Shown: one piece after another, positions 40,358 to 59,681 of the stretch | How positions within the stretch are numbered: the stretch's first letter is position 1 | Layout of the letters: each line of letters begins with the position of its first letter | From: a virus | Length of the DNA: 64,000 nucleotides | IMG/VR virus record: IMGVR_UViG_3300031772_000023 | Location: 3,985-67,984 of that record | Direction: 5' to 3' (one strand) | The notes under the pieces: model-generated | The model's database searches: none | What the model was told of the DNA's origin: nothing | Seen by the model: the letters and a program-made list of their open reading frames with translations, nothing else | Program-made: the position numbers and the translations under genes

Positions 40358-40669
40358 TTTATCATCACCCACACTTCCCTATCATCATGACTATTGTAAC
40401 TAATAGAAATTTTATTATGACAAAAATCATGGGAATATAAAATATGCTTTTCTTCTTTTTCTTCTTTTTATTCTTTTTCATAGTATATTCCTAATCTCAT
40501 ACAAAGAGAAGGAAACATACTGAATAAGTTAGGGTATAAATAGTGTCGAAATTGACATTAGAGGATGAGAAGTATATTTTTTATAAACAAAACATTTCCT
40601 GTTCAAAAATATCAACATGGACAGGATTATTCATATTTGTGTTTGATTATTAGTTAGTTATACTGTTGG

Positions 40670-40685
40670 AATACATATACATGTT
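40670..40685 (+). repeat. attI-like site, partial copy
   Basis: AATACATATACATGTT identical to 44706-44721 and 59658-59673. Confidence 0.75.
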
Positions 40686-41167
40686 AGCAGAAATGGCTAC
40701 GACCCTACTAACAAGGATAACCATCGTGTAAGTTATCTTTCTTGTCTGTATAAAAAGAACCCGAAACACTGTGCATTGAACTATCACAAGTAATTTCTTC
40801 CCAAATTGTAACACCTAAATCTTCAATCTTTCTTTCTGTACGTTTTAAAAATTCATTAGCTAACTCTTCACTTTCAAATCCTTCGTTGTTTGGGCATCTG
40901 TAAATACGACCTAACACTTCGCCTGATTGGTGCAAAGCAAGATAACCCCAAGCACCTCCGTCTTGTAAATCACTTCCGCAAATTGGACATTCCATTGTAT
41001 AAAATTTAAAATTAATACCCTTGTAAATTAACCGCCACTTCTGCTAACAAGGGTTTGTAGCAATAGGGGCAGAAGGAACTAAATTGAGCCTTAGTACTTC
41101 TATTAGGCTGCGGTGCTATATTGAACAGTAGTGCTATAAATCCCCACTGCTACAAGCCCCAAACGTT
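40683..41167. mobile_element. Solo satellite gene cassette
   Basis: GTTAGCAGAAAT...ACTTCTGCTAAC inverted ends, then hairpin 41046-41167 (gggtttgtagca / tgctacaagccc). Confidence 0.85.
40708..40995 (-). CDS. Cassette gene, Cys-containing hypothetical protein
   Basis: CPICG start; fills the cassette. Confidence 0.7.
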   Translation of the reverse strand: MECPICGSDLQDGGAWGYLALHQSGEVLGRIYRCPNNEGFESEELANEFLKRTERKIEDLGVTIWEEITCDSSMHSVSGSFYTDKKDNLHDGYPC

Positions 41168-41189
41168 AGGTGCAATTTAATATTTTAAA

Positions 41190-41591
41190 TTAATAAAATT
41201 TTTCTACTTCTTTTCTTATCAAATCCGGGGAACTACTCATATCATTAGAAATAATATCAATAGTTATATTATACCATTTTTCAAAAGTTTCTGCACTCAT
41301 TTTATCGAAAGATAATGATTGTGGAAAATAATAGTGAAGCCCATCTTTACCTTCGAATTCATCATAATAACCACATCTTATTGTAAGTATTTTTCTATAG
41401 ATTTCTAGCGTAGCATATTTATCTTGATTTTCAAATCCAATATTAAGTAGTGCGAATCCTTTTCTATGAAACTGTACATTTCTGGCTATGGTTGCTTTTA
41501 CTTCAGCACCTACTTTTATCTTATTAGATTGATCTATACTTTCTGAATCAACAGGAGCATAATGACCAGATTTTAGTTTAGTAAGAAACAT
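41190..41591 (-). CDS. DUF1367/NinB-like protein
   Basis: RNVQFHRKGFALL...SLSFDKM...FE. Confidence 0.6.
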   Translation of the reverse strand: MFLTKLKSGHYAPVDSESIDQSNKIKVGAEVKATIARNVQFHRKGFALLNIGFENQDKYATLEIYRKILTIRCGYYDEFEGKDGLHYYFPQSLSFDKMSAETFEKWYNITIDIISNDMSSSPDLIRKEVEKFY

Positions 41592-41963
41592 TTATAATTT
41601 ATAAAAACTAGGTTCGAAATGTCCATTTCCTTTTTCATCTTCTACCCAATGATGTGATTCCCATTTTTTTCTCTTATTGTGTTCTTCTTGGTAAAGCAAC
41701 TGTCTTTTTTTATGAATGGAAATATATTCTTTATTTGACTTATCAGATTTTACTTTTTCATTTAATTCCTCCTCCTCCTTATTCTTTACCCATAACTCTA
41801 CATCAACAATCGTTTTTCCTATTGCCCATGAATACATTTCATAATCGGTTACATATTCTATTTTACCGTTAAATACTTGAAAGCAACACCAACTTTCAAA
41901 CGCTTCGATGCGATACTCTTCAGAATAGCATTGCACTAAAGATGGTATTTTGGTTATTGTCAT
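41592..41963 (-). CDS. Hypothetical protein
   Basis: Abuts downstream gene. Confidence 0.55.
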   Translation of the reverse strand: MTITKIPSLVQCYSEEYRIEAFESWCCFQVFNGKIEYVTDYEMYSWAIGKTIVDVELWVKNKEEEELNEKVKSDKSNKEYISIHKKRQLLYQEEHNKRKKWESHHWVEDEKGNGHFEPSFYKL

Positions 41964-42147
41964 TTTAATTTAAAATAAACCGGAAGGTTTTTTACTCCCT
42001 CCGGTTCTCAGTTAGCGACACCATCCAAGCTATCCACTACTTTTTTTTCATATACCGTGTAAATAGCGTGTCAGTATAAGTATGCCCTTTGGTTTATAGG
42101 TGTCTAGTGGTTTTCTTTAATTATATAACTAATTAATTATCAATAAG

Positions 42148-42762
42148 TTAAAATGGTAAATCTGAATGACTATCTTGATTAACTTCTGCTTCTTGTGGAT
42201 TAAAAAATGCTTTATATTCCTTAGATTCAATTATTTTTTTTCTTAACCATTCCGGCAATGCGCTGAATTTTTTATCATCAAAAGTTTCTAAGGAAAATTC
42301 AAAATTAGGATTTATCTGTGGTGGACATATTACACCTTTGGGAAGACCGGATATTGATGCAATCGTAGCGTATTCTTTTCCACTTGATTTTGATTTTGAA
42401 TATACAATATTAAGCATACAAGGGACACTCAATAGATTTGTTACATCAAATGCTTTTATTTCATCGGCAGTAAATGCCTTGCCGCGCCAACTATATAAAT
42501 CTTTCGATAGATTTGATTTTTCATACATTGATAATGTATATTCCTTTGAGACAGAATAAGGCTCTTCTCCTTTTTCTGGATTAAAAACTTTTTTTTCAGT
42601 TGGAAGCTCCCATGTTATTCTTACCTTGTTTAGGCCCTTAGTCTCTCCCTTAATTATTTCTTTAACAGTTCCGATATGAACCATTGAATAACATCTTGCA
42701 ATGTGATTTCCTGCTGGTGGTAAGTCAGCTATTTTACCTTCGTTTGTTGCTGTGATTGACAT
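42148..42762 (-). CDS. Putative single-stranded DNA-binding or replication protein
   Basis: Acidic tail ending DLPF; PAGNHIARCY N-terminus. Confidence 0.6.
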   Translation of the reverse strand: MSITATNEGKIADLPPAGNHIARCYSMVHIGTVKEIIKGETKGLNKVRITWELPTEKKVFNPEKGEEPYSVSKEYTLSMYEKSNLSKDLYSWRGKAFTADEIKAFDVTNLLSVPCMLNIVYSKSKSSGKEYATIASISGLPKGVICPPQINPNFEFSLETFDDKKFSALPEWLRKKIIESKEYKAFFNPQEAEVNQDSHSDLPF

Positions 42763-43288
42763 TGTTTTTTTTGTTTAATTGTTTATATATTGGTTTATTT
42801 ATTATTTTCTAATAAGCGGCCATTCTATCCCTTTTTCTTTAGCACAAATTTCACAGGCTTGGTGATAGTTGCAATCACATTTAAATCCAAACAGATTCAT
42901 AATATCATCTACTGTTCTTTCTGGGAATTCTGAATTCCTAGCTAAAATCTTTATTACTTCAACTCTTTTTTCTTGGCGTGTCATATTGTTTATATTAATT
43001 TTACAGCCCTGTTGCATCTTCTTTCGTATCCTTCGTCAATTAGGGTGTAGTTTATTGGTGATTCTTTTATAAGTTAGTTGTTTTTCTCCACGTAGGAGTT
43101 CCATAATTCTTGATTTTTCATTTTGACCATATTAAAATTTTAGTTATATCTTCCTATGCATATTTCATCTATAGTTCTCTTTGCTTCTTTTCTCTTGGCA
43201 AATCCAATTGGTATAGCGATTGATAGGAGAAATACGATTGTGATTAGTGTGTCCATAGTTATTTTTTTGTTATAGGTTTTGATATTGA

Positions 43289-43313
43289 TACGTGAGAAAT
43301 TTTAAAAGGTTAC
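43289..43313 (-). promoter_or_regulatory. ECF-sigma-like promoter motif, copy 3
   Basis: Minus strand GTAACCTTTTAAAATTTCTCACGTA. Confidence 0.6.
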
Positions 43314-43816
43314 AATATTTTTTTAATTATTATTTCAACTCTCTGATTTTTTCTTCTACACTTAAACTGCTCAGGTGGAATTGATTTAATAAATTCTGGA
43401 CTATCTCCGGAAATTATACCCAAAGTAGAGAAACAGTCATAAAGTACTTTTCTTTTACTTGGCAAGTTATCTTCTGTATCAGAAAGTTGCGACACGAATG
43501 ACTTGAACGAAATCGAAACTATATCTTTAAATTTAGGAGGATTTAAAGCCGTTAATCTCCACATCATTGCTTTTTTTCTCTTTAATCTATTAGTCCAATG
43601 CTCAGACATTAATCCATTTCTTCCATTAAGCCCCGGTATAAGCCCAGCAAGTGTTATTTTAACCCAACCTTCACCTATCTCTATTGTATCGCTTACGGTG
43701 GTCTCGCTGAGTGAACTACGGCCTAGTTTTACGGCCCTAGGAACAGATATAGGCTTTATAATAGCTTTTCGTCCGTATTTGGCTTGATATTCGGAAGCGG
43801 ACATTTGTTCGGTCAT
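43310..43816 (-). CDS. RusA-like Holliday junction resolvase
   Basis: PGLN...DTEDNL...K.LYD...GII.GDS...RVEI. Confidence 0.55.
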   Translation of the reverse strand: MTEQMSASEYQAKYGRKAIIKPISVPRAVKLGRSSLSETTVSDTIEIGEGWVKITLAGLIPGLNGRNGLMSEHWTNRLKRKKAMMWRLTALNPPKFKDIVSISFKSFVSQLSDTEDNLPSKRKVLYDCFSTLGIISGDSPEFIKSIPPEQFKCRRKNQRVEIIIKKIL

Positions 43817-43826
43817 TATGTTGATT

Positions 43827-44666
43827 TTAAAAGTTTATATTGTTTATTGGAGACTGTATTTTTGAAATTAAGTTGTGTGAGATATGAGTATAGATTTCAG
43901 TCGTTCTTACGTCTGAATGACCAGCTAGTCTTTTTATAAGTAAAATATCTGTACCCATTTCTACCATGTGTGTGAAAGTGCAATGACGGATAAGGTGTGT
44001 ATAAACTCTTTTAGAAAGTCCTGCCGATTTAGCGAGTTGTTTTATTACCTCGCCAACTGATCTTGCCGAATATTGCAAATCATTTTGTCCATTAAAAACA
44101 TAAATAACGGATTTGTATTCTCTGTAATATTTTTCGAGCAATGGGATAACGTTAGGATTCAATCCTACCTGCCTGTCCTTTTTACCCTTTGCTTGAATAA
44201 TATTTATTATCATCCTACTTCTATCAATATGTGACCATTTTAAATTTATTATCTCAGATACACGAAGGCCGCATGAATATAGTAAAGCAAAAATAGTTTT
44301 GTGTTTCAGATTCTCACATACATTAAACATTCTCTGTATTTCCTCTTGAGATAAAACTATTGGCAGCTTTTTAGATTTCCTCGGACGCTCTATATATTTG
44401 AATTTCTCAATTCCAACATGAGCGACCTTTTCATAATAAATCTTTATTGCCGAATGATAACCGGAATGGGTTGATGGTTCTTGAAATTGACCAAGGAATT
44501 GAATTATCATTTCGTGATTAATTCTATCGGGATGAGTAACTTCTTTCCTTTCAAAGTGCGCAAGGAATCCAGTAAAGTTACTACAATAATTACTTACTGA
44601 TCTAGGAGAGTATTTTCTAAACTCCATATACTTTCTGAGTTGATTGGTATGCTCTGAAATATTCAT
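43827..44666 (-). CDS. Tyrosine recombinase, integron-integrase-like but without the IntI-specific insertion
   Basis: SAM-like N-terminus (YSPRSVSNY), KKLPIVLSQEE, catalytic GLRVSE / AKGKKDR / HLIRH / AGH / IYTH. Confidence 0.92.
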   Translation of the reverse strand: MNISEHTNQLRKYMEFRKYSPRSVSNYCSNFTGFLAHFERKEVTHPDRINHEMIIQFLGQFQEPSTHSGYHSAIKIYYEKVAHVGIEKFKYIERPRKSKKLPIVLSQEEIQRMFNVCENLKHKTIFALLYSCGLRVSEIINLKWSHIDRSRMIINIIQAKGKKDRQVGLNPNVIPLLEKYYREYKSVIYVFNGQNDLQYSARSVGEVIKQLAKSAGLSKRVYTHLIRHCTFTHMVEMGTDILLIKRLAGHSDVRTTEIYTHISHNLISKIQSPINNINF

Positions 44667-44697
44667 TTGATTACTGTTTAATTATTAGATAGTTACA

Positions 44698-44721
44698 TAA
44701 TATGTAATACATATACATGTT
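44698..44721 (+). repeat. attI-like primary site
   Basis: TAATATGTAATACATATACATGTT, 31 bp upstream of the recombinase start; ends in the first GTT of the array; no hairpin. Confidence 0.8.
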
Positions 44722-44733
44722 CTACGCAATTGT

Positions 44734-45012
44734 TCAAGGGGCAACAGCCACAGCCGTTTTACTATTCTGTATTTCTTCATGCTTTTCAAGTTCCTCTTTG
44801 AAATTGTGCATTGCAGAAATCATACAAGTTAATCCCCCTTCGTAGTTTGCAATCCATTCTTCCCAACCATACGAGCGTTTAATATCGTGCATCTTACCTC
44901 TCGTTCTATCTATCTCACATCTGAGTTCTTCAATTAATTCACTCATCGGTTTATCCATTTCATCTGCACTTTTGTAGTAAATTGGATTTTGGTCTTTGTT
45001 TTTTCTTTCCAT
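44734..45012 (-). CDS. Cassette 1 hypothetical protein
   Basis: Inside GTTCTACGCAATTGTTCAAGGGGC / GCCCCTTGAACAACTGACGTAGAAC inverted ends. Confidence 0.7.
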   Translation of the reverse strand: MERKNKDQNPIYYKSADEMDKPMSELIEELRCEIDRTRGKMHDIKRSYGWEEWIANYEGGLTCMISAMHNFKEELEKHEEIQNSKTAVAVAP

Positions 45013-45070
45013 TGTGTTTTATTTTTTAGTTATTAATTTCTTACAGCCGCCCCTTGAACAACTGACGTAG

Positions 45071-45151
45071 AACAAGCGGGTTTAATTCCATTGTCAAAAT
45101 CATTTCATCGTTGCGGGATATTTTGCCAACGAAATAAACCCGCAGGACGTT
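45071..45151 (+). repeat. attC-like hairpin 1
   Basis: AAC-aa-gcgggttta...taaacccgc-aggac-GTT. Confidence 0.8.
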
Positions 45152-45180
45152 ATATTCAATTCGTTTTTTCAATTTAAAAA

Positions 45181-45558
45181 TTAAGAGGTTGCTTCGTTGT
45201 GGCAACTGCAATCACATATACTTTTTGGAAACTCTCCGCAATCGCAATTTTCGCAAGTTCTCCATTTGGGTAATTTTTTTGTGCCTTTAATAAACTTCTG
45301 CCATTCATAATTATTTTTTGGTTCATAGTTCCATGCTTTTCTCAATTCATCTTCGGTGAAAAGTGTTTTGTTTTCGGTAATGATGCGATTGAGCATATCA
45401 ATTTTGTCCTCATAGTATTTTGCCCTGCCATTATCATCTTCAAATTGTAGTGCAAATTCATTCATCGCATCTAAAACTTCTTTCGTGAAGTATTCTGTAT
45501 TGCCACTTACATTTTTGAACGGACAATGTTTCTCTAAAATTTCTTTTGCTGTTTTCAT
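45181..45558 (-). CDS. Cassette 2 hypothetical protein
   Basis: MKTAKEIL..., Cys-rich C-terminus. Confidence 0.7.
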   Translation of the reverse strand: MKTAKEILEKHCPFKNVSGNTEYFTKEVLDAMNEFALQFEDDNGRAKYYEDKIDMLNRIITENKTLFTEDELRKAWNYEPKNNYEWQKFIKGTKKLPKWRTCENCDCGEFPKSICDCSCHNEATS

Positions 45559-45616
45559 TTTGATTGTAGTTTATATTGTGAAAGTATTTTTAAATTGAAA
45601 AAACGAACTGGAATAT

Positions 45617-45678
45617 AACAAGGGATTAAAAGAAATTGGCTGAAAAAAGAAGCCAACTTCTTTAATCCCCGATGCGTT
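45617..45678 (+). repeat. attC-like hairpin 2
   Basis: AAC-aa-gggattaaa...ttggct / agccaa...tttaatccc-cgatgc-GTT. Confidence 0.85.
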
Positions 45679-45728
45679 GTGCGCAATTTTTTGTGTATTA
45701 AAATGGGCAACAGCCACAGCCTGCATAC

Positions 45729-46346
45729 TTAAAATAGTTTTACCTGCATTGTTCGTTCTTTAAAATTTTTCATTGCATCATCATAATATCCTTTGTCAAT
45801 TTCACACGCCACCAAATCAAATTCTTTATAGTGGCAAGCAATGGCAATGTTTCCGCTTCCCAAATGTGTATCGAGTATTTTGTTTCCCTGCTCTGCATAT
45901 TCCTTTAGCAAAAATTCATATACTCTTATTGGCTTTTGGCATGGATGAACTTTGCCTCTGTAATCTCCTTTTGCCAATGGGTCACGCTTGTAAATTTTTG
46001 CGCATCTATCAAATGAAGTCCATGCCATTTCACATTCGGCATAAGTTCTATTTTTGAAACCTTCGCCTTTATCCCAAATCACAAAGCATCTTGTCGGTGG
46101 CAATCCAAAATAATTTCCACCCCATATAATTTGATTTTTGCTAACTCTAAATAGTTCATCAAAATATGCTTTGTCTGGGATTGCCTTATCCCAATCCTTC
46201 TTTTCAAAATTATTGAAGCCTTTATATCCAACATTGCCACCATCCATTCCAATTCCATAAGGCGGGTCAACTATTGCCAAATCAAAATGCTGGTCAGGAT
46301 ATTCTGCCATTAACTTCATGCAGTCTATGTTTCTAATATCAATCAT
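45729..46346 (-). CDS. Cassette 3 DNA methyltransferase (N6/N4, beta order)
   Basis: DPPYG before ILDTHLGSG; HPCQKP; likely start MIDIRNIDCM. Confidence 0.9.
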   Translation of the reverse strand: MIDIRNIDCMKLMAEYPDQHFDLAIVDPPYGIGMDGGNVGYKGFNNFEKKDWDKAIPDKAYFDELFRVSKNQIIWGGNYFGLPPTRCFVIWDKGEGFKNRTYAECEMAWTSFDRCAKIYKRDPLAKGDYRGKVHPCQKPIRVYEFLLKEYAEQGNKILDTHLGSGNIAIACHYKEFDLVACEIDKGYYDDAMKNFKERTMQVKLF

Positions 46347-46397
46347 AACAGCCGCCCATTTTAATACACAAAAAACTGTAAAGGCTAAAGCCCGCAC

Positions 46398-46504
46398 AAC
46401 ATAGGGTTTGCACTAATTTTCCTTCAACTTTTTTATTCTGTTTCATTTGTTTCAGTCAAACCGTTTGAGGCAAACGCCCTTCGGGTAGTCAAACCCTTGA
46501 ACTT
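46398..46504 (+). repeat. attC-like hairpin 3 (core CTT)
   Basis: AAC-at-agggtttg...caaaccct-tgaa-CTT. Confidence 0.7.
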
Positions 46505-46778
46505 AAATGCAATAGCTACGACCCCGCTCCGTAAGTTCAACTTTGCCATTTTTGCGTTCAACCAATTTATAATCCTCAAGTTTGTATATTGTTGCCCAAC
46601 TAATGTTTTTCATAGCATTATTTGAGTAAAAACATATTGCGTTAATGCCAGATAGATAGTATATAATCTCGTTAGCTTGTAAAGTTGATATTACTTCCTT
46701 TTGAGCTTTAGATAATTTAACCGCTACTGCATTTAACACGGGTTTGGCAAAAAAGCCGTTTTGGTCTTCGTTTGACAT
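46503..46778 (-). CDS. Cassette 4 winged-helix-like protein; starts inside hairpin loop
   Basis: LSKAQKEVI...LVE...ELTERG. Confidence 0.65.
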   Translation of the reverse strand: MSNEDQNGFFAKPVLNAVAVKLSKAQKEVISTLQANEIIYYLSGINAICFYSNNAMKNISWATIYKLEDYKLVERKNGKVELTERGRSYCI

Positions 46779-46852
46779 ATTGTTCTAATTTTTAAGTTTT
46801 GTAATTCTATTTGACTTTTCGTTTCGGCTTCTTCGCCAAGCCCGCAACCGTT
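46735..46852 (+). repeat. attC-like hairpin 4
   Basis: AAC-a-cgggtttggc...gccaagcccg-caacc-GTT. Confidence 0.85.
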
Positions 46853-46980
46853 GCACCGCAAGGCGGTGCAACTAAGTCCGCGTACCGCGTGCCGCCCTGC
46901 GGGCAACATCCCGTTTGATGCCAGCGCCGGGCATTGATGTGAAGCCACATCTGCCCGCGCCCGCACAAACGCGGACAGTT
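46850..46980. mobile_element. Cassette 5, gene-less GC-rich mini-cassette
   Basis: GTTGCACCGC-AAG-GCGGTGCAAC directly followed by hairpin gtccgcgt...acgcggac-a-GTT. Confidence 0.7.
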
Positions 46981-46999
46981 GGGCGCAATTTGTATTTGT

Positions 47000-47206
47000 T
47001 CAAAGGGGGCTAACAGCCAACGACACCTCATGGTCTATATAGTTATACATTTTCATTTTAAATTTCTCTTTCCCTCCCAATAATTTTATACTGCTTTTTT
47101 TAACCCACAAAAAAGATAATGGAATTGCTTTGTCCTTTATCGGCTTTCTTCCTGCACCTTTTCGTGCGCCCCCTCGTTTTGATTTTTTCATGTTCTCTGT
47201 CCGCAT
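47000..47206 (-). CDS. Cassette 6 small basic protein (GGARKGAGRKP motif)
   Basis: Same motif type as 60576..60767. Confidence 0.6.
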   Translation of the reverse strand: MRTENMKKSKRGGARKGAGRKPIKDKAIPLSFLWVKKSSIKLLGGKEKFKMKMYNYIDHEVSLAVSPL

Positions 47207-47264
47207 TGAAGCGCACGGCTGAACCGCAGAGAAACCGTCCTACTGACTTAGCAGAACAGCAGGA

Positions 47265-47693
47265 TTACGCTTCAACTGAATTATTCTTTTTCAGTAATTC
47301 TACAAGCTCCTCCATTGAATTTTTAAGCCGACTAATTTCATCTTTCAAATCGTCAATGATTGGCTCTTTATAAACATGGTATTTATTATAATTTGACCAG
47401 CCGATTGAATAAAGAAGTGACTGAATTTTGTAGGTGCTTCCCATGATTTTGCATTTATCTACATGAGAATAGTCGAGTTTATTCGGGTCTCTTTCTTCTT
47501 CTGGAGTACCATACTGATAATCCTTACCAAATTCAATCTGTTCAATAATAATATCATCCAAATCATCATTGGTTTCAATTATAAAAGAGGAATTATAATC
47601 CTCAATAAATAATGATTCACCTGTTTCAGTGATGACTCTGAATCCACATTCGTGTGGATGTTTTTTCCATGAAATAATCTTTTTTGTTTTCAT
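47265..47693 (-). CDS. Cassette 6 hypothetical protein
   Basis: Likely start MKTKKII, downstream of near-consensus -7 box at 47733-47740. Confidence 0.65.
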   Translation of the reverse strand: MKTKKIISWKKHPHECGFRVITETGESLFIEDYNSSFIIETNDDLDDIIIEQIEFGKDYQYGTPEEERDPNKLDYSHVDKCKIMGSTYKIQSLLYSIGWSNYNKYHVYKEPIIDDLKDEISRLKNSMEELVELLKKNNSVEA

Positions 47694-47855
47694 TGTGCTA
47701 AGTTTTAATTGTTGATGTTTTGATTTGTAACGTAAAGATAAGTATTTAATTTGAATTGGCAATAGGTTTAATCAAATATATTTTCAATACAAGAATAGTG
47801 CCAAAACAGCCGCCCCCTTTGAACAAATACAAACTGCAAGGGCTAAAGCCCGCCC

Positions 47856-47965
47856 AACATAGGATTTGCAGTAATTGGTCATTTCCTTTTTTATTTTTTT
47901 CATATTGATAAATGCCCAACCAAAACGAGGCGTTTTGCCCTTCGGGTACTCAAACCCTCACCATT
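47856..47965 (+). repeat. attC-like hairpin 6 (core ATT)
   Basis: AAC-at-aggatttg...caaaccct-cacc-ATT; related to hairpin 3. Confidence 0.7.
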
Positions 47966-48317
47966 ATCCGCAAGCGTTCAAAGGGGCAACAGCCTCCCAG
48001 CCAATCCCATTCGCCATTTCTTCTTTCAACATTTTCTGTAATGCAGGTAATATTTTCTCCGCAAATCTGTTACAAGCTGTTTCGCATTTTTTGCCATACA
48101 AAATGTAAGCCATTCCTGTGTACATTTTAGTTCCGAAGTAACCAATATTTAAACCGATTAGAAAATCTCGGAAATCTTTATCTCCGTAACTTCTCCAAGC
48201 AAAGGAAAGGTTTCCCCAATCCGTAACCGATGCGAACATTCCATCTGATGTTAGAACTATTTGTCCTAACCATTCTCCATTGTCGCCTTTCAGCGAGTAA
48301 CTTTTTGATTGTACCAT
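47964..48317 (-). CDS. Cassette 7 hypothetical protein
   Basis: Stop codon overlaps the junction core. Confidence 0.7.
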   Translation of the reverse strand: MVQSKSYSLKGDNGEWLGQIVLTSDGMFASVTDWGNLSFAWRSYGDKDFRDFLIGLNIGYFGTKMYTGMAYILYGKKCETACNRFAEKILPALQKMLKEEMANGIGWEAVAPLNACG

Positions 48318-48383
48318 TTTGTTTTTATGTTTTAGTTATTGTTTCAAGTTTCTTACAGCCGCCCCTTTGAACGCCAGACGGAT

Positions 48384-48462
48384 AACATCGGATATAGTCA
48401 AGTAAAATTTCCTTCTCATAGTTGCTATTGATAAATTTTCCCTGCCCATATCCGTCAGCGTT
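48384..48462 (+). repeat. attC-like hairpin 7
   Basis: AAC-at-cggatat...atatccg-tcagc-GTT. Confidence 0.75.
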
Positions 48463-48533
48463 AGCAGACATTGTAATTATTAAAAAAACAAAAGCCACCG
48501 CACTCTTTAAATTTTTCAAATTTATAAAATGTT

Positions 48534-49079
48534 TTATTTCGTAATCGTTTCAAACACTATCTTCTTTGGTAAAATATCCTTCGTAACATACACACTTGAA
48601 AACGGAGGGTTCAAACTCGGTTTTTGGTCTGCATAGCTTTTAAAGTAGCTTATCCGTTTATTAAAATACATTATTTCAAATTCGTTATCCTTAAACATAT
48701 TAAATCGTTTTTGGCTTTCAAACAATCCAACTACTCCAACAAGCATCGCAAATGGTTTTCCAAGTTCAAATAGTTTTTGGAATACTTCTGCTTTAATTGA
48801 GTAGGGCGGATTTGAAATAATGTAATCAAAGTTCACAAGAAATTCAGTTGTAAAAAAATCTCTACCATCTGAAATATGTGAGCAAATAGCATCGTGTCCT
48901 TGTTCTCTAAGCATTTTTACAAAGTTACTTTCTTCCGTATCAAACGGACACCACACAATACTTTTTGGCTTCAAGTATTTCATAAGCGGTTCTATTGCAT
49001 ATCTTGGTGTATAAAATTCATCATTCGGATTTATTTCTCCGTTCATTTCTGCTTTGTTTGTAATCTCGTCCAGTTTCAT
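48534..49079 (-). CDS. Cassette 8 small adenine methyltransferase-like protein
   Basis: DEFYTP, VWCPFD, DFF, IISNPPYS. Confidence 0.75.
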   Translation of the reverse strand: MKLDEITNKAEMNGEINPNDEFYTPRYAIEPLMKYLKPKSIVWCPFDTEESNFVKMLREQGHDAICSHISDGRDFFTTEFLVNFDYIISNPPYSIKAEVFQKLFELGKPFAMLVGVVGLFESQKRFNMFKDNEFEIMYFNKRISYFKSYADQKPSLNPPFSSVYVTKDILPKKIVFETITK

Positions 49080-49176
49080 ATTTCTTAGTTTAAATTAAGA
49101 GCCGACACACACCTTCCCTTTTTGTTTTTTTAATAATTACAACGAGCCTACGCTCAAAATCCCACCGCACTCTGCT

Positions 49177-49235
49177 AACACTGGGTTTAACGTCAGTTTG
49201 CGAAAAGCAAACCGAACGTAAACCCAGATACCGTT
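49177..49235 (+). repeat. attC-like hairpin 8
   Basis: AAC-a-ctgggttta...taaacccag-atacc-GTT. Confidence 0.85.
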
Positions 49236-49458
49236 ATGCGTAATTATTCAGCAACGCCACTACCTTAACCGCCATTTCTCTATCACCCCAAAAGCCCTCA
49301 CACACTCTACGGTCACACCATAAATCTAAATGTGTTCGTGGCTTATCGTGTTCACCAATTTCATAGTATCTAACCTTCCCTCTAACCACTTCTCTGAACA
49401 CATAACTGCGCATAACAGGAAGATTAGAAGAAATTTCTTTTTTGTTTTCAGTTTCCAT
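49234..49458 (-). CDS. Cassette 9 hypothetical protein; starts inside hairpin loop
   Basis: ISSNLPVMRS is encoded by the hairpin arm. Confidence 0.65.
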   Translation of the reverse strand: METENKKEISSNLPVMRSYVFREVVRGKVRYYEIGEHDKPRTHLDLWCDRRVCEGFWGDREMAVKVVALLNNYA

Positions 49459-49546
49459 ATTGAGTTTTGTTTTTAATTATTAGCATTTCGTTTTCAATCA
49501 AAGTTTGCGGAGACAAAAAAGAAACTTCTCTAATCTCCGATGCGTT
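49414..49546 (+). repeat. attC-like hairpin 9
   Basis: AAC-a-ggaagattagaagaaatttc...gaaacttctctaatctcc-gatgc-GTT. Confidence 0.85.
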
Positions 49547-49575
49547 ACCCAAAATAAAAGTGGGCAATTAGCATC

Positions 49576-49725
49576 CTACTTTGAAAATGCTTTTATATAT
49601 TGTTTAATCGTTGCCTTTTTAAATCCTCGTCTCATTAATTGGCTAACGATTACACCATTTGTTTTTCCGTCTCCGAGCAAGTATCTTACTTGCCATTGGA
49701 GGTCTCGCTTTTCTTCGTTTGTCAT
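49576..49725 (-). CDS. Cassette 10 small protein (49 aa, not in ORF track)
   Basis: MTNEEKRDLQWQVRYLLGDGKTNGVIVSQLMRRGFKKATIKQYIKAFSK. Confidence 0.6.
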   Translation of the reverse strand: MTNEEKRDLQWQVRYLLGDGKTNGVIVSQLMRRGFKKATIKQYIKAFSK

Positions 49726-49775
49726 AATATTTATTTTAAAAGTTAATTTTCGTTTTGCCCACTTTTACTTCGGGT

Positions 49776-49868
49776 AACATAGTTTTGTGTGCCAGTTGGC
49801 TTCACCATTTTATTTTCTTCAATTTGTTTCATCCAACCGTTCCCTTCGGGCAACAAAACTTGTCCGTT
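49776..49868 (+). repeat. attC-like hairpin 10
   Basis: AAC-at-agttttgt...acaaaact-tgtcc-GTT. Confidence 0.75.
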
Positions 49869-49886
49869 ATCGGTCAGCACTACATT

Positions 49887-50138
49887 TCATTGAAAAGATA
49901 ATGATTCTAACTCCCACTTAGCGGACTTATGCGAAAAAACTAATGCTGTACCCCATCCTGCATGTGGGACTAAAACATCATAACTAATATACTTCCAATT
50001 TTCAAAGTATGTTTGTAAAAACACTACATACCCATCAATTTCTATTGGTATCCAAGCAAACTTCTTTGCTTTACATACTTGTCCAATAAAATAATTTTCT
50101 TTAACAAGTATCTTTTTTTCTCTTTTTTTAAACTTCAT
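49887..50138 (-). CDS. Cassette 11 hypothetical protein
   Basis: KFAWIPI..G..VFLQ.Y. Confidence 0.65.
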   Translation of the reverse strand: MKFKKREKKILVKENYFIGQVCKAKKFAWIPIEIDGYVVFLQTYFENWKYISYDVLVPHAGWGTALVFSHKSAKWELESLSFQ

Positions 50139-50199
50139 AAAACATTAATTTTTGACGTTAGCAATAACTCCTCTATAATTTTACCCGTGCCGAACCGAT

Positions 50200-50326
50200 A
50201 ACAAGGGGTTTTGTGCTATTGCGGCTTGACGTTCTTAATTTCAACATTTGTTTTTCAATCGGGCTGCATCTGTGGTTTGAACTGCGGTAATTCTATTTCC
50301 GCAACAGACACAAAGCCCTGTTCGTT
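50200..50326 (+). repeat. attC-like hairpin 11
   Basis: AAC..gggttttgtgctattgcgg...ccgcaacagacacaaagccc..GTT. Confidence 0.85.
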
Positions 50327-50350
50327 ATAAAACATTGCCATTCCAGTTCA

Positions 50351-50521
50351 TCAATGAAAGTGGGTGCATCTATAACATTCAACATTTCTATTTTCACATT
50401 CCCTATGCCAAAAGGAATGGCAACGCTTTATAACAGGAAGATTTGAAGAAATTTTATTTACTTCCTTATCTGCTTTTTTAGGCGTTTTTGCTTTAACTTT
50501 CTTTACTGCTTTTTTCATCAT
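50351..50521 (-). CDS. Cassette 12 small Cys/His protein (56 aa, not in ORF track); starts inside hairpin loop
   Basis: MMKKAVKK...ISSNLPVIKRCHSFWHRECENRNVECYRCTHFH. Confidence 0.55.
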   Translation of the reverse strand: MMKKAVKKVKAKTPKKADKEVNKISSNLPVIKRCHSFWHRECENRNVECYRCTHFH

Positions 50522-50569
50522 TTGTGCTTTTAAGTCGTAAATAAAACATTCTCAAATCTCCGATGCGTT
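50432..50569 (+). repeat. attC-like hairpin 12
   Basis: Same arm family as hairpin 9. Confidence 0.85.
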
Positions 50570-50580
50570 AGTGGCAAGTG

Positions 50581-50766
50581 CTACATTTCGTCTTCGTAAA
50601 AACATTTGCCTTTAGTGCTAAAATATTCTTTTGCCCACTCTTTACCTTTCCCGTTCAATAATGCTTCTACAAAATCAGCTATGATATTTGCACCGTCACA
50701 ATGTCCATCTGGACCATCGTTAATCATTATGTCGCTAATAATATTTTCAATTTGTTCTTTGTTCAT
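50581..50766 (-). CDS. Cassette 13 hypothetical protein
   Basis: DGPDGHCDG motif; fills the cassette. Confidence 0.65.
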   Translation of the reverse strand: MNKEQIENIISDIMINDGPDGHCDGANIIADFVEALLNGKGKEWAKEYFSTKGKCFYEDEM

Positions 50767-50795
50767 TTTTCGTTTAATTTACCGCACCAGCCACT

Positions 50796-50890
50796 AACAG
50801 TGGTTTTGTGCTATTATTTTGGCTATAAAATTTATCTTTAAAGGTAAGTGTCTGCAAGCCAAAATAACAGACACAAAGCCACGAAACGTT
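50796..50890 (+). repeat. attC-like hairpin 13
   Basis: AAC-a-gtggttttgtgctattattttggct...agccaaaataacagacacaaagccac-gaaac-GTT. Confidence 0.9.
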
Positions 50891-50901
50891 GTAGGCAATG
50901 G

Positions 50902-51168
50902 CTAAGAGTGTTCAATCATTGCCTGTGCTATAAAAATTGTTTCCTCTCCCTTATGCACAAATTGTTGATTAGGTATTACTTTCATCACATAGCCACTTGT
51001 GTATTCAAGCACCGTGTCTGTTTCACTATCATAGTCGGCAACAATTTTATCCGACCACTCAAATAGCACTTGCACAGGCAAATTAACTATTCGGATGTCG
51101 CCACTGCCTACAACATTGTGTTGCTGCAATTGTGGCAATTCCCACTTAAATTCATCTTTGTTTTTCAT
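50902..51168 (-). CDS. Cassette 14 hypothetical protein; starts inside hairpin loop
   Basis: Likely start MKNKDEF; LPQLQQHNVVGS is encoded by the arm. Confidence 0.65.
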   Translation of the reverse strand: MKNKDEFKWELPQLQQHNVVGSGDIRIVNLPVQVLFEWSDKIVADYDSETDTVLEYTSGYVMKVIPNQQFVHKGEETIFIAQAMIEHS

Positions 51169-51237
51169 ATCAAGTTTTTGTTTGTTATTCAACTTTTGTC
51201 TTTCAAATGCCACAACTGACAGCAACACCTTACCGTT
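51112..51237 (+). repeat. attC-like hairpin 14
   Basis: AAC..gtgttgctgcaattgtggca...tgccacaactgacagcaacac..GTT. Confidence 0.85.
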
Positions 51238-51260
51238 ATACGCAAGGCTACCATTCATTT

Positions 51261-51752
51261 TCATATTGAGCATTTCGGTAAGGTTTTAAAGATTGTATCA
51301 CCCTCCCATCCACGCTTCATTTCTAAAATACAGGTTTGAACTCTGCTTCCTTTGAAAGTGCTTCGTGGCAAATGTGTAATTGATTTTAGCCCCCATTCCA
51401 TAATATCCTTTGTCCTTTTCTCTCCGTTTATAATTGCCAAATAAGGCATCAGAGCAATTATATTATCCGTCATATCCATACACTTGTAAAGGATATCATA
51501 CCCTTGCTTCATTGGGCTAAATGGTGGGTTCATCACTATCCATTCAAATTGGCTTTCCACCATTTTATTAAAATCATTTGGCACAATCACTTTTCCGTAT
51601 TGCTCTAATGCCTTTACAAGTTTTCCTTTGCCAGCAGTGGGCTCTAAAATCAAACCTGTATTTCCAATAAGAAATGAAGCCATATACTCACACACATTTT
51701 CGGGTGTTTGAAAATTATCGCCCCAATCTTTAAAATCTTTTTCTTCTTCCAT
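51261..51752 (-). CDS. Cassette 15 small adenine methyltransferase-like protein
   Basis: FQTP, ILEPTAGKG, IVMNPPF. Confidence 0.8.
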   Translation of the reverse strand: MEEEKDFKDWGDNFQTPENVCEYMASFLIGNTGLILEPTAGKGKLVKALEQYGKVIVPNDFNKMVESQFEWIVMNPPFSPMKQGYDILYKCMDMTDNIIALMPYLAIINGEKRTKDIMEWGLKSITHLPRSTFKGSRVQTCILEMKRGWEGDTIFKTLPKCSI

Positions 51753-51787
51753 ATCAATATTTTCTCTTAATTAACCGCCCAGCGTAT

Positions 51788-51876
51788 AACACGGTATTTG
51801 TGCTATTTTGCCATTGGGCTTTATCTATAATTTGAACATTTGTGCAAGGCAAAACAGACACAAATACCCATCCGTT
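51788..51876 (+). repeat. attC-like hairpin 15
   Basis: AAC-ac-ggtatttgtgctattttgcc...ggcaaaacagacacaaatacc-catcc-GTT. Confidence 0.9.
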
Positions 51877-51905
51877 AGTTACCTGCAAGTGCTACGATAC
51901 TGCTA

Positions 51906-52631
51906 CTATTGAACATTTGTGGGAGAAAATTTAAAAAGTTTTTCCACGCTCTTAAAATTATTCTGTTTACTTAACGTGTTACTTAATTCCATCTCCCAAA
52001 CACATTCAAAGTCAATAGGTGCGTTATATTCACTCACAAATACTGTGCGTCCTTCTTTTGATTTATCCCTACACCATTCCCAAAATTCAATATGGTCTAT
52101 TCCGTTTTTGTATTTTATAGTCCCTTCGTATGGTGGGTCGCAATAAATGATTGAGTTTGGTGGTATTTCTAAATTCTTATAATCAGATTGAACAAAATGA
52201 ACTGATATTAAATTAGGTATTTGCTTTATCAAACCACGTCTTGCTTCATCTTGATGATTAGGTAATTTTCCGTTTTTTAATCTTTTTGATTCTTGATAGT
52301 CACTCAAATAACCACCAAACCATTTCCCTCCATAGCTACAACATATTCCTGCCCATACAGTCATTTTACTATCTCTATCTTGGTTTTGTTTAATATATTC
52401 ATATTCATCCCTACTTATTCTTAATGGTGGTGTCCATCCATCTTGCAATGCTTTATAAAATTCAATTAAATGTTTGTTATAATCAGAAGCAAGTCTTAAA
52501 CCTTCAACTTTATCGGTGATGTTTGCTCCACCAACAAAAGGCTCAACAAACCATTGATTAGGTTTTCTATCATTTAGTATTATTGGTAAAATGTGTTTTG
52601 CAATTCTACTTTTATTTCCTGTATATCTCAT
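51906..52631 (-). CDS. Cassette 16 Dam/D12-class DNA adenine methyltransferase
   Basis: YTGNKS, FVEPFVGG, IYCDPPY, VFVSEY. Confidence 0.9.
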   Translation of the reverse strand: MRYTGNKSRIAKHILPIILNDRKPNQWFVEPFVGGANITDKVEGLRLASDYNKHLIEFYKALQDGWTPPLRISRDEYEYIKQNQDRDSKMTVWAGICCSYGGKWFGGYLSDYQESKRLKNGKLPNHQDEARRGLIKQIPNLISVHFVQSDYKNLEIPPNSIIYCDPPYEGTIKYKNGIDHIEFWEWCRDKSKEGRTVFVSEYNAPIDFECVWEMELSNTLSKQNNFKSVEKLFKFSPTNVQ

Positions 52632-52702
52632 ACTCTAAAACTTTTTTAATTTTCTATTCGTTTTCAAATCAAAATCCTGCTAAATTAACCGCACCAGCAG
52701 GT

Positions 52703-52766
52703 AACAGCACCCTTAACGCAAGTGGGCTGAAAAAAGAAGCCCACCAGCGTAAGGCTGCAATCCGTT
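52703..52766 (+). repeat. attC-like hairpin 16
   Basis: AAC-a-gcacccttaacgc..gtgggct / agcccac..gcgtaaggctgc-aatcc-GTT. Confidence 0.8.
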
Positions 52767-53028
52767 ATAGGAAATTTATGGATTTTAGGTATTTCTCAAC
52801 ACCTTCCTTTATTCCTAAACTTTGGTTGTGTATTCCTTCACATTCCATTGATTGACAAAAATCCATAAACATTCCTATAACATCGGGTTTATGAAATTTT
52901 TTAACCTCACTTTCTGCAAACTCCGAGAGTAGGTCTTCTAATCTAAAGTAGTTTTCAGGTGCGGTTTCATCAGCAACATTTGCACCTACATAAATCTTTT
53001 TGCTTCTTAAAAATTCTCTTGTATTCAT
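52765..53028 (-). CDS. Cassette 17 hypothetical protein; about half encoded inside the hairpin
   Basis: VKKFHKPDVIG is encoded by the arm. Confidence 0.65.
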   Translation of the reverse strand: MNTREFLRSKKIYVGANVADETAPENYFRLEDLLSEFAESEVKKFHKPDVIGMFMDFCQSMECEGIHNQSLGIKEGVEKYLKSINFL

Positions 53029-53077
53029 TTTGTTATATTTAAACGGTTAAAAAACTATCATAAACCCGAATCACGTT
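52879..53077 (+). repeat. attC-like hairpin 17 (longest, 199 bp)
   Basis: AAC-a-tcgggtttatga..ttttttaacc...ggttaaaaaa..tcataaacccga-atcac-GTT. Confidence 0.85.
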
Positions 53078-53085
53078 ATGCGTAA

Positions 53086-53376
53086 TTAAAAGAACTCGTT
53101 AATCATAGCATCTACTGTTGGCTTTAAGAACCTGAAATACTCTCTTTTGTGTTCAGCAATATCTTCTTCATTTATCCCAAACCAAAAGATAATTGGCAAA
53201 GGAATTTCAAACTCTTTTGATATTGTTTCTAATACGCTAATGTTTGGAGTTTTTGCTCCAGTTTCAATTTGTGATAAGTATGTTTGAGTTATACCTATCA
53301 ATTTTGCAAACTCCGACTGATTTAATTGCGGTGTTCGCTCTTTTCTAATGTTTCTAATTGCTATTCCTACATTCAT
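53086..53376 (-). CDS. Cassette 18 XRE-family HTH regulator with its own promoter
   Basis: NQSEFAKLIGITQTYLSQIETG; TACCTTTG -7 box at 53398-53405. Confidence 0.85.
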   Translation of the reverse strand: MNVGIAIRNIRKERTPQLNQSEFAKLIGITQTYLSQIETGAKTPNISVLETISKEFEIPLPIIFWFGINEEDIAEHKREYFRFLKPTVDAMINEFF

Positions 53377-53478
53377 AATTTTATGTTATTTATTAAGCAA
53401 AGGTAATAATTATTTCTGACAAAACAAATTTATCTTAAAAATATTAACTACGCATAATAGCAGAAATAAAAAATTTGC

Positions 53479-53861
53479 TCATAGCGTTCTGTGCTTCGGT
53501 TCAACATACGCCACGCCAATCCTATCAAACAGGTCTTTTTCCTCACGCACTTCATAGCTTTTGCCATTCTGCATAAGGTAGCCACCTTCGCTTTTTGCCA
53601 TTGGTTCACTATCTCCGCTATGCCATCCTGAAAAAGACCAGCTTGATAGGGCTTTGGAATTGCTACTATCTCAATGTCCTTTACTTCGCTTTTCTCCCTG
53701 CGTATGCTTCCTGCAATCTCACATCTTATGCAATGTGGTTGTAGCAATTCCAACACACGCACCGCTATCGAATGGGCTTCATCGTAAGCAAATTTTTTAC
53801 TATCCGCTAACACACCATTGGAAGTAATGGCGGTCTTTTCGGTATCATTTTGCTTTTTCAT
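53479..53861 (-). pseudogene. Cassette 19 family X DNA polymerase-like gene with internal deletion and frameshift
   Basis: IAGSIRR..VKDIEIV in one frame; EEKDLFDRIGVAYVEPKHR-stop in another frame; middle missing. Confidence 0.75.
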
Positions 53862-53928
53862 ATTATTTATCTTTTAGTTGTTAATCAAAATTATCTTTTC
53901 TATTCCGCCACTACTCCAATGGTCGGTT
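53809..53928 (+). repeat. attC-like hairpin 19
   Basis: AAC..accattggaagtaatggcgg...ccgccactactccaatggt..GTT. Confidence 0.85.
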
Positions 53929-54154
53929 AGCCGCCATTTAAAAGACGCTTTATCGTTCTATAATCTTCAACCTCTTTATGTAATGCTTTTAATCCTTCAA
54001 TTTGCATTTCTAAGTCTTGTTTTACCACTTCGTTTGTTTGTCTAACCAGTTCTTTTTGTAAGTCTGCTGCAATCCGTAACAATAAACGGCTGCTAACAAC
54101 ACCTAAACAAGATGGCTGGTTTTCGTTTTCTAATGAAGTTTTGTCTGTATTCAT
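53927..54154 (-). CDS. Cassette 20 coiled-coil protein; starts inside hairpin loop
   Basis: QPSCLGVVSSR is encoded by the arm. Confidence 0.65.
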   Translation of the reverse strand: MNTDKTSLENENQPSCLGVVSSRLLLRIAADLQKELVRQTNEVVKQDLEMQIEGLKALHKEVEDYRTIKRLLNGG

Positions 54155-54217
54155 AATTTTGTGATTTTAATTAAGTTTTGTGGTGGAATACGCCACCTCG
54201 TTTAGCTGCAAAATGTT
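54095..54217 (+). repeat. attC-like hairpin 20
   Basis: AAC..ctaaacaagatggc...gccacctcgtttag..GTT. Confidence 0.75.
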
Positions 54218-54227
54218 AGCACCAATA

Positions 54228-54413
54228 CTACTTTAGTGCTTCGTCCAATCTTCCGAGAACAACTAACAATGTTTTGCGTTTAATATCGCATTTCATTGCA
54301 GCTTCAAAATCCTCTGCTTTTTTATAGTCTTCAATGTGGTTGTATAGTTGCTCTATTCGATTAACCATATCCATTCTCATTCTTTCAATGTTTTCTCTTA
54401 ATGTTTCTTTCAT
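54228..54413 (-). CDS. Cassette 21 hypothetical protein
   Basis: Inside GTTAGCACCAATAC / GTACTGGTGCTAAC inverted ends. Confidence 0.65.
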   Translation of the reverse strand: MKETLRENIERMRMDMVNRIEQLYNHIEDYKKAEDFEAAMKCDIKRKTLLVVLGRLDEALK

Positions 54414-54451
54414 CGTTTTTAATTTTATCGTTAATAATCCGTACTGGTGCT

Positions 54452-54500
54452 AACAGCGTATAAAAGCCATTGAAAAAACGGCTCTTATACGCCAACCGTT
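54452..54500 (+). repeat. attC-like hairpin 21 (shortest, 49 bp; end of array)
   Basis: AAC-a-gcgtataaaagcc...ggctcttatacgc-caacc-GTT. Confidence 0.85.
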
Positions 54501-54542
54501 CCAGTAAATCTGTTTTTGATAGTTAACTTAGTTTTCATAGTA

Positions 54543-54743
54543 TTAATTTTTATAAAAATATTTAGTGATCTTACGCATATCTTTTGAAAAGGTTACGCTA
54601 AATCCATTTTTAATATCTAATTTCCAGTTTATGATTATTTTTATTGCCTCCTTTTGATGTTCGTTTATGTAATGCCATTCTCCCATATTCATTTTAATGA
54701 GTTCCTGAAGCAAACCGTTTTTATAATCTGAAGATATATTCAT
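54543..54743 (-). CDS. Hypothetical protein after dnaB
   Basis: ATGA overlap with the dnaB stop. Confidence 0.55.
   Translation of the reverse strand: MNISSDYKNGLLQELIKMNMGEWHYINEHQKEAIKIIINWKLDIKNGFSVTFSKDMRKITKYFYKN
54572..54596 (-). promoter_or_regulatory. ECF-sigma-like promoter motif, copy 4, facing the cassette array
   Basis: Minus strand GTAACCTTTTCAAAAGATATGCGTA. Confidence 0.55.
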
Positions 54744-56140: not shown

Positions 56141-56299
56141 TTAAAAAGGGGTTTTATTTGTTTCTGAAATTGACCTATTAGCCGATTCTTCATTTTTAAG
56201 TACTTGATATAAAGCGTTACATATTTGAGAATTATATGATACTCCATATCTTTTCTTTTCTTCCATCCATTTACTGAAATCAGAATGTATTCTAATGTT
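56141..56299 (-). pseudogene. Ribbon-helix-helix-like small gene whose 5' end is interrupted by a cassette
   Basis: NIRIHSDFSKWMEEKKRYGVSYNSQICNAL; stop abuts the dnaB ATG. Confidence 0.4.
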
Positions 56300-56762: not shown

Positions 56763-56908
56763 AGCGGTCATTTTTAGACAGCCTCAAATTTGTAAATGCT
56801 ATTTTTTGTTCTGAATGTATTTTCGTCAATTATTTCTGTTACAGTGCTGGTTCTAAAACACTTGTCTTCACTTAAATATGTTATTGGTTAATTTATTAAT
56901 TTAAAATA

Positions 56909-58323: not shown

Positions 58324-58327
58324 ATAT

Positions 58328-59558: not shown

Positions 59559-59649
59559 AGTTAAAGATTTATATTGGTTATATTCCTGTTAAATATTTGT
59601 TACATGAACAGGAATATTAACATTAACTCGCATATTTACAACTACTTAC

Positions 59650-59673: not shown

Positions 59674-59681
59674 AGCCACAA

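Follow-up and report, generated by a model that had tools for sequence, protein, structure and literature searches.

An insert-less tyrosine recombinase occupies the place of intI beside an attC-type gene-cassette array in a viral contig

We analyzed a 64,000-nucleotide stretch of viral DNA (hereafter the window; positions 3,985 to 67,984 of the IMG/VR record IMGVR_UViG_3300031772_000023), in which an open reading frame (ORF) at 43827–44666 on the minus strand encodes a tyrosine recombinase of 279 amino acids. Pfam matches, alignments and a phylogenetic tree describe the protein as having an Xer-type fold and as lacking the insert, known as I2, of the integron integrases (IntI). The window is part of a 67,984-bp contig, estimated to be 91% complete, that splits its genes by strand, the structural ones lying on the plus strand and the small early ones on the minus; judged by protein similarity, its closest cultured relatives are Flavobacteriia phages. 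The recombinase gene lies within the early operon, with the next gene starting 10 nt downstream, and the many intergenic gaps of 100–350 nt in the early region fold as hairpins between AAC and GTT. Directly before the gene lies a junction that resembles the attI site of integrons (44667–44733, minus strand), and the whole is embedded in a cassette region (40683–60032, minus strand) in which sub-arrays of attC-type sites and small genes are set among core replication genes, such as DnaB and a DnaA-like helix-turn-helix (HTH) gene.

Two Pfam domains make up the 279 residues of the protein, an N-terminal SAM_4 domain (residues 8–82, E = 1.5e-8) and a catalytic Phage_integrase domain (residues 105–263, E = 3.2e-35), and an arm-binding domain is absent. 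A motif search and an alignment located the catalytic residues at R135 (within GLRVSE), K160/K163 (KGKKDR), H224-x-x-R227 (HLIRH), H250 (GHSD) and Y259 (IYTH), and the KKLPIVLS segment starting at residue 99 pairs with the matching segment of VchIntIA. Compared with the integron integrase structure 2a3v, the protein aligns in two pieces (residues 9–179 with 8–179 of the chain and residues 206–276 with 249–319), meaning that 26 residues of the recombinase replace 69 of IntI; the XerA structures 4a8e and 5hxy align with it in a single piece. The stretch starting at residue 190 reads VFNGQNDLQYSARSV. In a MAFFT alignment, a two-part insert of approximately 31 and 11 amino acids was present in all five IntI sequences, three of which come from the likely host phylum (that of a metagenome-assembled genome, MAG, carrying the related locus L028), and missing from all six phage-type recombinases and from XerC and XerD. 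The distance from KGxKDR to HxxRH is 106–107 residues in IntI, 73 in XerD and 64 in the window protein (K160 to H224), and the best 120 relatives in a large protein database are 237–315 amino acids long, mostly 275–286. A preliminary description of the locus, made from the sequence alone, had considered the R-K-HxxR-H-Y set intact, the KKLPIVLS segment similar to that of integron integrases and the IntI-type insert absent, and the residues located, the VchIntIA pairing, the split structural match and the alignment uphold all three statements.

The recombinase reached none of the curated family cutoffs. The best family score was obtained with the XerA model NF040815 (177.3 bits, cutoff 220), and the scores with the IntI models TIGR02249 (162.7 bits, cutoff 265, the match falling in two stretches) and NF011946 (98.5 bits, cutoff 435) and with the XerD (152.1 bits, cutoff 329.6) and XerC models (151.8 bits, cutoff 335.15) were likewise under threshold. 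We computed a maximum likelihood tree for 46 sequences, XerA being left out; the IntI references were drawn from phage records and genomes of the likely host phylum, and the control genomes held no true IntI. IntI was monophyletic with a support of 100/100 and its clade held no phage-type sequence, XerC and XerD formed a single clade with a support of 100/99, and the phage recombinases, including that of the window, fell outside both. A branch of modest support (70/93) separates the 21 close phage recombinases from the rest, and Leef, Ingeline and the outgroup sit on long branches. The tree leaves the order of the three groups open, and thus a separate lineage, as the preliminary description had proposed, holds, but a sister relationship to IntI does not follow. 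Sequence comparison places the recombinase in a distinct lineage that has no insert. The scores also bear out the earlier expectation that IntI-based screens would miss the system, as does the fact that a survey with IntegronFinder and HattCI filed a phage with the same type of site as an attC cluster without an integrase.

In the attI-like junction, a 5′ box ends in AAC (44721–44719) and is followed by an AT-rich conserved stretch without a hairpin, the box lying 52 nt before the ATG. We identified 20 related loci in a viral collection, with recombinases 55–77% identical, and 9 more among the genomes of 185,579 species (8 MAG contigs, phage-sized or tiny and with inconsistent labels, and 1 isolate scaffold at 27% identity). 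The recombinase gene and its leader are nearly the sole DNA common to the loci, and in the comparison with one of them (L008) the DNA homology starts at 44715, 3 nt past the AAC box. A box ending in AAC approximately 45–60 nt before the recombinase start, again followed by an AT-rich stretch without a hairpin, was found in 17 of 18 related entries, of which two are duplicates, the 18th being cut by the contig end. The same junction is present in the cultured phages Leef_1, Ingeline_1 and Freya, the recombinase homologs of which are 31–33% identical. Within the window, the AT-rich stretch (22–34 nt, with a 15-bp palindrome) occurs in three direct copies, each directly following a cassette-terminal AAC: before the recombinase (44698–44731), before the DnaA-like HTH gene (59650–59683) and at the end of the early strand (40667–40688).

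A loose scan of the window gave 14 elements that share an architecture and lie without exception on the minus strand, in the range of 41–60 kb, and a stricter scan gave 17 elements in the same range and on the same strand, with 1 likely false match per strand elsewhere. In the direction of transcription, an element opens with a box that ends in YAAC; an unpaired stretch of 4–5 nt with G as its first base leads into an imperfect stem-loop, after which come (Y)T, GTTR and a second box. With position-weight matrices made from these boxes, the minus strand had 27 and 24 matches and the plus strand 3 and 5. Numbered along the minus strand, the attC-type elements of the strict set are 1 (59947–60032), 2 (56640–56762), 3 (54452–54500), 4 (52703–52766), 5 (51788–51876), 6 (51112–51237), 7 (50796–50890), 8 (50432–50569), 9 (50200–50326), 10 (49776–49868), 11 (49414–49546), 12 (49177–49235), 13 (48384–48462), 14 (46735–46852), 15 (45617–45678), 16 (45071–45151) and 17 (41046–41167). 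Four further cassette ends on this strand have no hairpin. One of them, at 59650–59685 (AAC 59673–59671), continues into the same AT-rich palindromic stretch as is found before the recombinase and forms a secondary attI-like site; two others are at 56275–56310 (AAC 56299–56297), upstream of DnaB, and at 54195–54228 (AAC 54217–54215); and the last, at 40660–40697 (AAC 40685–40683), holds the third AT-rich attI-like copy.

What follows the GTT of an element finds its complement ahead of the AAC of the next downstream element, and not ahead of the element's own AAC. Complementarity over 8–10 contiguous bases was found in 6 of 13 adjacent element pairs but in only 1 of the 183 other cells of the matrix, and when the 3′ boxes were searched against the whole window, 10 of the 20 had their best non-self reverse-complement match on the same strand, 181–553 nt downstream. 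Defined in this way, 16 cassettes each have terminal inverted repeats of 15–34 nt; the score of a cassette against its own other end exceeded the mean against the ends of the other cassettes in 16 of 16 cases and the maximum in 13 of 16. Complementary cassette ends provided the logic by which the crossover point of integrons was first deduced. An assignment of the hairpin to the upstream gene was rejected in favor of the downstream gene, on the grounds of the strand of true integrons and of the Freya junctions described below.

Four cassette genes are methyltransferase-like: an N6_N4 type (45729–46397), an EcoRI-methylase/Dam-like type (48534–49079), a weak N6 match (51261–51752) and a D12 Dam type (51906–52631). 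With four DNA methyltransferases in the cargo, what the platform shuffles is probably anti-restriction genes along with other accessory genes, and the methyltransferase genes themselves are probably anti-restriction cargo. One cassette has a counterpart in the related locus L002, where positions 8100–9080 share with 49179–48462 of the window a common frame of a 70-nt leader and an 85-nt trailer, mutually complementary over approximately 23 nt, around unrelated ORFs: that of the window encodes a methyltransferase, and that of L002 has a CxxxCxxC motif. A 99-nt repeat with 76% identity (46344–46442 and 47802–47900) covers gene starts and intergenic sequence in the array, and a locally GC-richer stretch at 46700–47300 (0.383 in the 46–48 kb bin), with overlapping ORFs of odd composition, includes two close box matches (46980/46907 and 46852/46737). 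The ORFs at 50902–51273 and 56298–56741 overlap the hairpins at 51237–51112 and 56762–56640, and either their true starts are downstream or the frames enter the hairpins. A 43-nt repeat with 81% identity has one copy downstream of the recombinase operon (43277–43319) and one where the early strand begins, in a large intergenic stretch (61381–61423), and possibly serves as a promoter or operator.

In the presumed source run, contigs end at 8 element positions and the spikes in depth are local to the hairpins. The hairpin sequence of element 3 has a depth of 427× against a phage baseline of approximately 17×, indicating that it is present in many other contexts of that sample. Another run has a 13.5-kb contig that matches the window solely at 49763–49869, the position of element 10, with unrelated flanks on both sides. 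A permissive Rfam scan of 39–63 kb gave no matching family and two weak, irrelevant matches. Within the whole contig there is one match to the recombinase and one match to the IntI model, and neither an HUH/Y1 transposase nor a second recombinase came out of a Pfam search of 30 ORFs from the early region. Elements of the IS200/IS605 or REP/RAYT type were rejected because no HUH enzyme was found among the early ORFs in this search and because such systems are not known to have long covarying cassette ends.

The linkage of recombinase and array extends to the relatives. In 26 nonredundant loci totaling 430 kb, a strict filter retained 59 elements on the recombinase strand and 4 on the opposite strand, with 1.0 expected from shuffled sequences, and the cassette-end signature was found downstream of 50 of the 59 elements but in only 8 of 59 in the upstream control. 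The clade thus co-occurs with AAC…GTT hairpin arrays, a link that the preliminary description had marked for checking; of the two results that would have contradicted that description, an insert showing up in the alignment or close homologs unconnected with hairpin arrays, neither was obtained. Arrays are found at identities down to 31–40%, in the locus L034 and in Leef_1 and Freya, and Ingeline_1 has the junction and only 1 strict element; the loci without elements mostly have less than 900 nt of upstream flank. In three near-identical loci with the recombinase at 10001 (L011–L013), the frame stops after 142 codons while the protein match runs on to residue 277, which may reflect a broken gene or a sequencing error. 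The same trio, the only closely related one among the loci, has a breakpoint inside a gene, around which the identity changes gradually, a pattern of ordinary homologous recombination that is uninformative on the cassettes.

Among cultured phages, near-identical isolates differ by whole cassettes. Freya_1, 6, 8 and 10 were obtained on one host strain and have flanks 99.4–100% identical; their only differences, a block of 4,921 nt, one unit of 902 nt and one replacement, lie directly upstream of the small recombinase. All six junctions switch parent at AAC, and the parental junctions have just AAC or cAAC, 3–4 bases, in common; on the right-hand side, the switch takes place at the attI-like site, 46–47 nt before the recombinase ATG. 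These comparisons show site-specific gain and loss of whole cassettes at the attI-like site of Freya, and they do not by themselves identify the acting enzyme. Leef_1 and Ingeline_1 each carry a classical integrase beside the regulatory switch and a small insert-less homolog at the end of the early operon, and in Leef_1 three typical elements lie upstream of the small homolog, with an AAC junction approximately 54 nt before its start.

For comparison, we searched 201 genomes of the likely host phylum for IntI and its sites. On the intI-sense strand, IntI-linked attC sites read YAAC, a 4-nt bulge from G, a stem, T and GTT, and show the same next-neighbor signature, and the attC arrays were upstream of intI in eight of eight loci. 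The attI junction, resolved in four of the eight, has AAC followed by an AT-rich stretch approximately 202–206 nt before the intI ATG, and its first bases resemble those of the phage junctions. As the core and the polarity are the same, the gene-sense strand of the phage array corresponds to the bottom strand of attC, and the recombinase occupies the place of intI. The cassette genes differ in direction, 12 of 13 being on the recombinase strand in the window and none of 61 on the intI strand in the integrons. In the predicted folds, one bulge in the 3′ arm has a fixed place in all 12 IntI-linked sites and none is fixed in the 17 phage sites, three of which have uninterrupted stems of 16–20 bp. 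A walk along the helices found a bulge of 3–4 nt beside the core in 12 of the 17 phage sites, the first steps being as in the 12 IntI-linked attCs. Within the set L058–L069, many integrons share one highly uniform attC type of 82 nt, while that of L060 differs and has more symmetric spacers.

The anatomy of the cassette array and the mobility of cassettes in the relatives are well supported, and we consider the ORF to be probably the resident recombinase of a phage-borne, integron-like gene-cassette platform. On the gene-sense strand, a cassette consists of an attC-type hairpin, one small gene and a terminal AAC box complementary to the bases after its own GTT, and the main array ends in a lone AAC half-site joined to the attI-like stretch before the recombinase, which is the intI–attI–attC layout seen on the intI-sense strand. 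From its position, the polarity of the elements and the junctions, the enzyme seems rather likely to act on the hairpins. It would exchange strands at AA|C despite having no I2, probably on a folded strand, and a single strand exchange could be resolved by replication, as in the case of XerC acting for the CTX phage; for a phage genome, packaged as linear DNA, a second strand exchange might do less harm. The enzyme might read the 4-nt bulge and the stem in place of fixed extrahelical bases, and the lack of a fixed bulge in the phage sites fits an enzyme without I2. We infer from the missing I2 segment and from the variable extrahelical bases that it recognizes its sites differently from IntI, as the preliminary description had thought. 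The broader generalization, that a widespread family of I2-less recombinases in Bacteroidota phages runs its own integron-type platform and moves cassettes in and out at AA|C beside its own gene, appears to us about evenly balanced between true and false.

The same arrays could be ordinary clusters of attC sites lacking integron integrases (CALINs) that are served in trans by a host IntI during infection, the phage recombinase having another task, for instance the resolution of genome multimers at the AT-rich site beside its gene; in single-recombinase Xer systems, the site is kept next to the gene. We hold this main alternative to be unlikely, although it deserves to be taken seriously. Several observations weigh against a resident recombinase, and the first of them also speak for the host enzyme. 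IntI scored above the curated cutoff in 67 of the 201 genomes, making action in trans possible, and the phage sites share the core architecture and the next-neighbor signature of IntI-linked attC. The Polaribacter phage P12002L has no annotated integrase but 4 strict elements, which probably include the attC1 and attC2 of PMC9892861; according to the available text of that paper, IntI1 recombined five of six phage attC sites in an assay, and a P12002L site is among those it can recombine. The accessible parts of PMC7790495 (Escudero et al. 2020) and PMC8138268 (Smyshlyaev et al. 2021) treat the insertion as essential for integron function and its I2 helix as necessary for attC recombination, Xer being without it. 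Further points on this side are that the neighbors of the recombinase are unconserved on both sides among the loci; that L033, at 42% identity and with 10 kb of upstream flank, has no element and is a real miss; and that L016 has one element, found by the loose scan only. A DnaB search, the best relatives being 38% and 32% identical, gave no close relative of this phage that would show turnover of its cassettes; the comparison with the source run was one of assembled contigs, with joints whose sides of 19–32 nt were not counted as evidence; and the frames shared by the window and L002 around unrelated ORFs point to some homologous exchange as well. A host IntI, however, leaves unexplained the AAC half-site and attI-like stretch approximately 50 nt before the gene, found in 17 of 18 entries and in three cultured groups, and the intI-type polarity toward the recombinase, with 59 elements against 4. 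Nor are the phage cassettes simply those of the host, since their genes lie on the opposite strand (12 of 13 against 0 of 61), and the phage sites are without the fixed extrahelical base that was seen in 12 of 12 IntI-linked sites.

That the protein is a classical lysogeny integrase and the adjacent array an incidental synteny is, in our judgment, improbable. Annotators in PHROG and GenBank do name such proteins integrases, and the paper on Freya, Leef and Ingeline (PMC8776804, Bartlau et al. 2021), the available text of which mentions neither cassettes nor integrons, reads the integrases as a sign of a possible temperate life; a relative with 73% identity (P0064) is on a 503-kb contig, where it could be an integrated or a misassembled copy. 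Leef_1 and Ingeline_1, however, own a separate classical integrase by their regulatory genes, and the gene of the window lies inside the early operon, has no arm-binding domain to offer and has no tRNA accompanying it in the window; a search reaching close relatives only found no isolate-genome homolog with at least 40% identity among the 185,579 species. Even less probable, and hardly to be expected, is that the hairpins are regulatory, acting as terminator–promoter units or RNA processing stems, and that shuffling takes place by homologous recombination with no dedicated enzyme. The location of the elements between cotranscribed early genes, the leader–trailer frames surrounding unrelated ORFs in the window and L002 and a recurrent G–T pairing position, which would be a G–U wobble in RNA, agree with such a role, for which the PeSL promoter–terminator cassettes of T4-type phages are a precedent in the accessible text of PMC4122927 and PMC2839356. 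The crossovers of Freya, however, fall within 3–4 common bases, too few for homologous recombination, there are no T-runs after the stems, and the core architecture, the polarity and the attI-type junction are those of true integrons; a P12002L site of this kind was moreover recombined by IntI1 at the expected point, as reported in the sections of PMC9892861 available to us.

What can be stated plainly is that the family occupies the position of intI by attC-type arrays and that, in its cultured relatives, whole cassettes come and go at the adjoining site. In integron biology, the I2 insertion is seen as the innovation that enabled recombination of folded, single-stranded attC sites, and detection tools require it. 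If a resident, I2-less recombinase does run the platform, the I2 helix would not be required for attC-type recombination, and the family could represent either the state of integron integrases before I2 or a parallel solution; phages would then hold a private pool of mirror-oriented cassettes with anti-restriction and other accessory genes. Should the enzyme prove active, cultured pairs (Freya and Leef on Polaribacter) would allow a direct test of whether I2 is necessary, the phage CALINs would have an explanation, and the accessory regions of phages, here rich in orphan DNA methyltransferases, would have a mechanism of gene shuffling; cassette platforms that IntI-based screens cannot see would also come to light as a class.

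Among the closest known parallels to the arrangement are integrons, above all the sedentary chromosomal ones of the likely host phylum. In both, the recombinase gene follows an attI-type junction with an attC-type array of one orientation upstream on the sense strand, and both have the AAC/GTT core, an adjacent 4-nt bulge and complementary cassette ends. The classical crossover on the bottom strand of attC is AA|C, and the phage crossover maps to AAC. The available text of PMC9892861 gives the crossover as G|TT, in agreement with AA|C on the bottom strand. Unlike integrons, the phage platform has an enzyme that is without the I2 insert, fails the IntI models and falls outside the IntI clade, and its cassette genes point toward the recombinase; the attI-like junction is approximately 50 nt from the start codon instead of approximately 200 nt, and the predicted folds of its sites show no fixed extrahelical base. 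The platform is furthermore phage-borne, split into sub-arrays and provided with several attI-like ends.

Integron parts and CALINs have been described in phages, P12002L among them, by Qi et al. (2023; PMC9892861), who proposed their uptake from bacteria and found one P12002L site with HattCI and Infernal. The available text links no phage recombinase to the clusters; "Xer" does not occur in it, and its two uses of "tyrosine recombinase" mean IntI. Our literature search, with most subscription journals outside its reach, found no paper on an I2-less recombinase tied to phage attC arrays. The window resembles these phage CALINs in having the type of site found in P12002L and methyltransferases among the cargo, and it is unlike CALINs in that its array ends at a conserved I2-less recombinase and its cassettes are oriented as mirror images of the bacterial ones.

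With the Xer recombinases, the phage enzyme shares the size, the domain layout and the absence of the insert, XerA giving the best family score, and for an Xer enzyme using a folded single strand XerC on the CTX phage is a precedent (PMC7790495, in the text available). It differs from them in scoring below every Xer cutoff, in lying outside the XerC/XerD clade and in being phage-encoded and linked to cassette arrays instead of dif. The PeSLs of T4-type phages, as presented in the accessible parts of PMC2839356 and PMC4122927, are similar in being stem-loops between small early genes, in hyperplastic regions with modular gain and loss of genes, and their exchange is ascribed there to homologous recombination. 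In the phage arrays, by contrast, the crossovers are limited to 3–4 bases located at a fixed core, and next to the array stands a dedicated recombinase gene.

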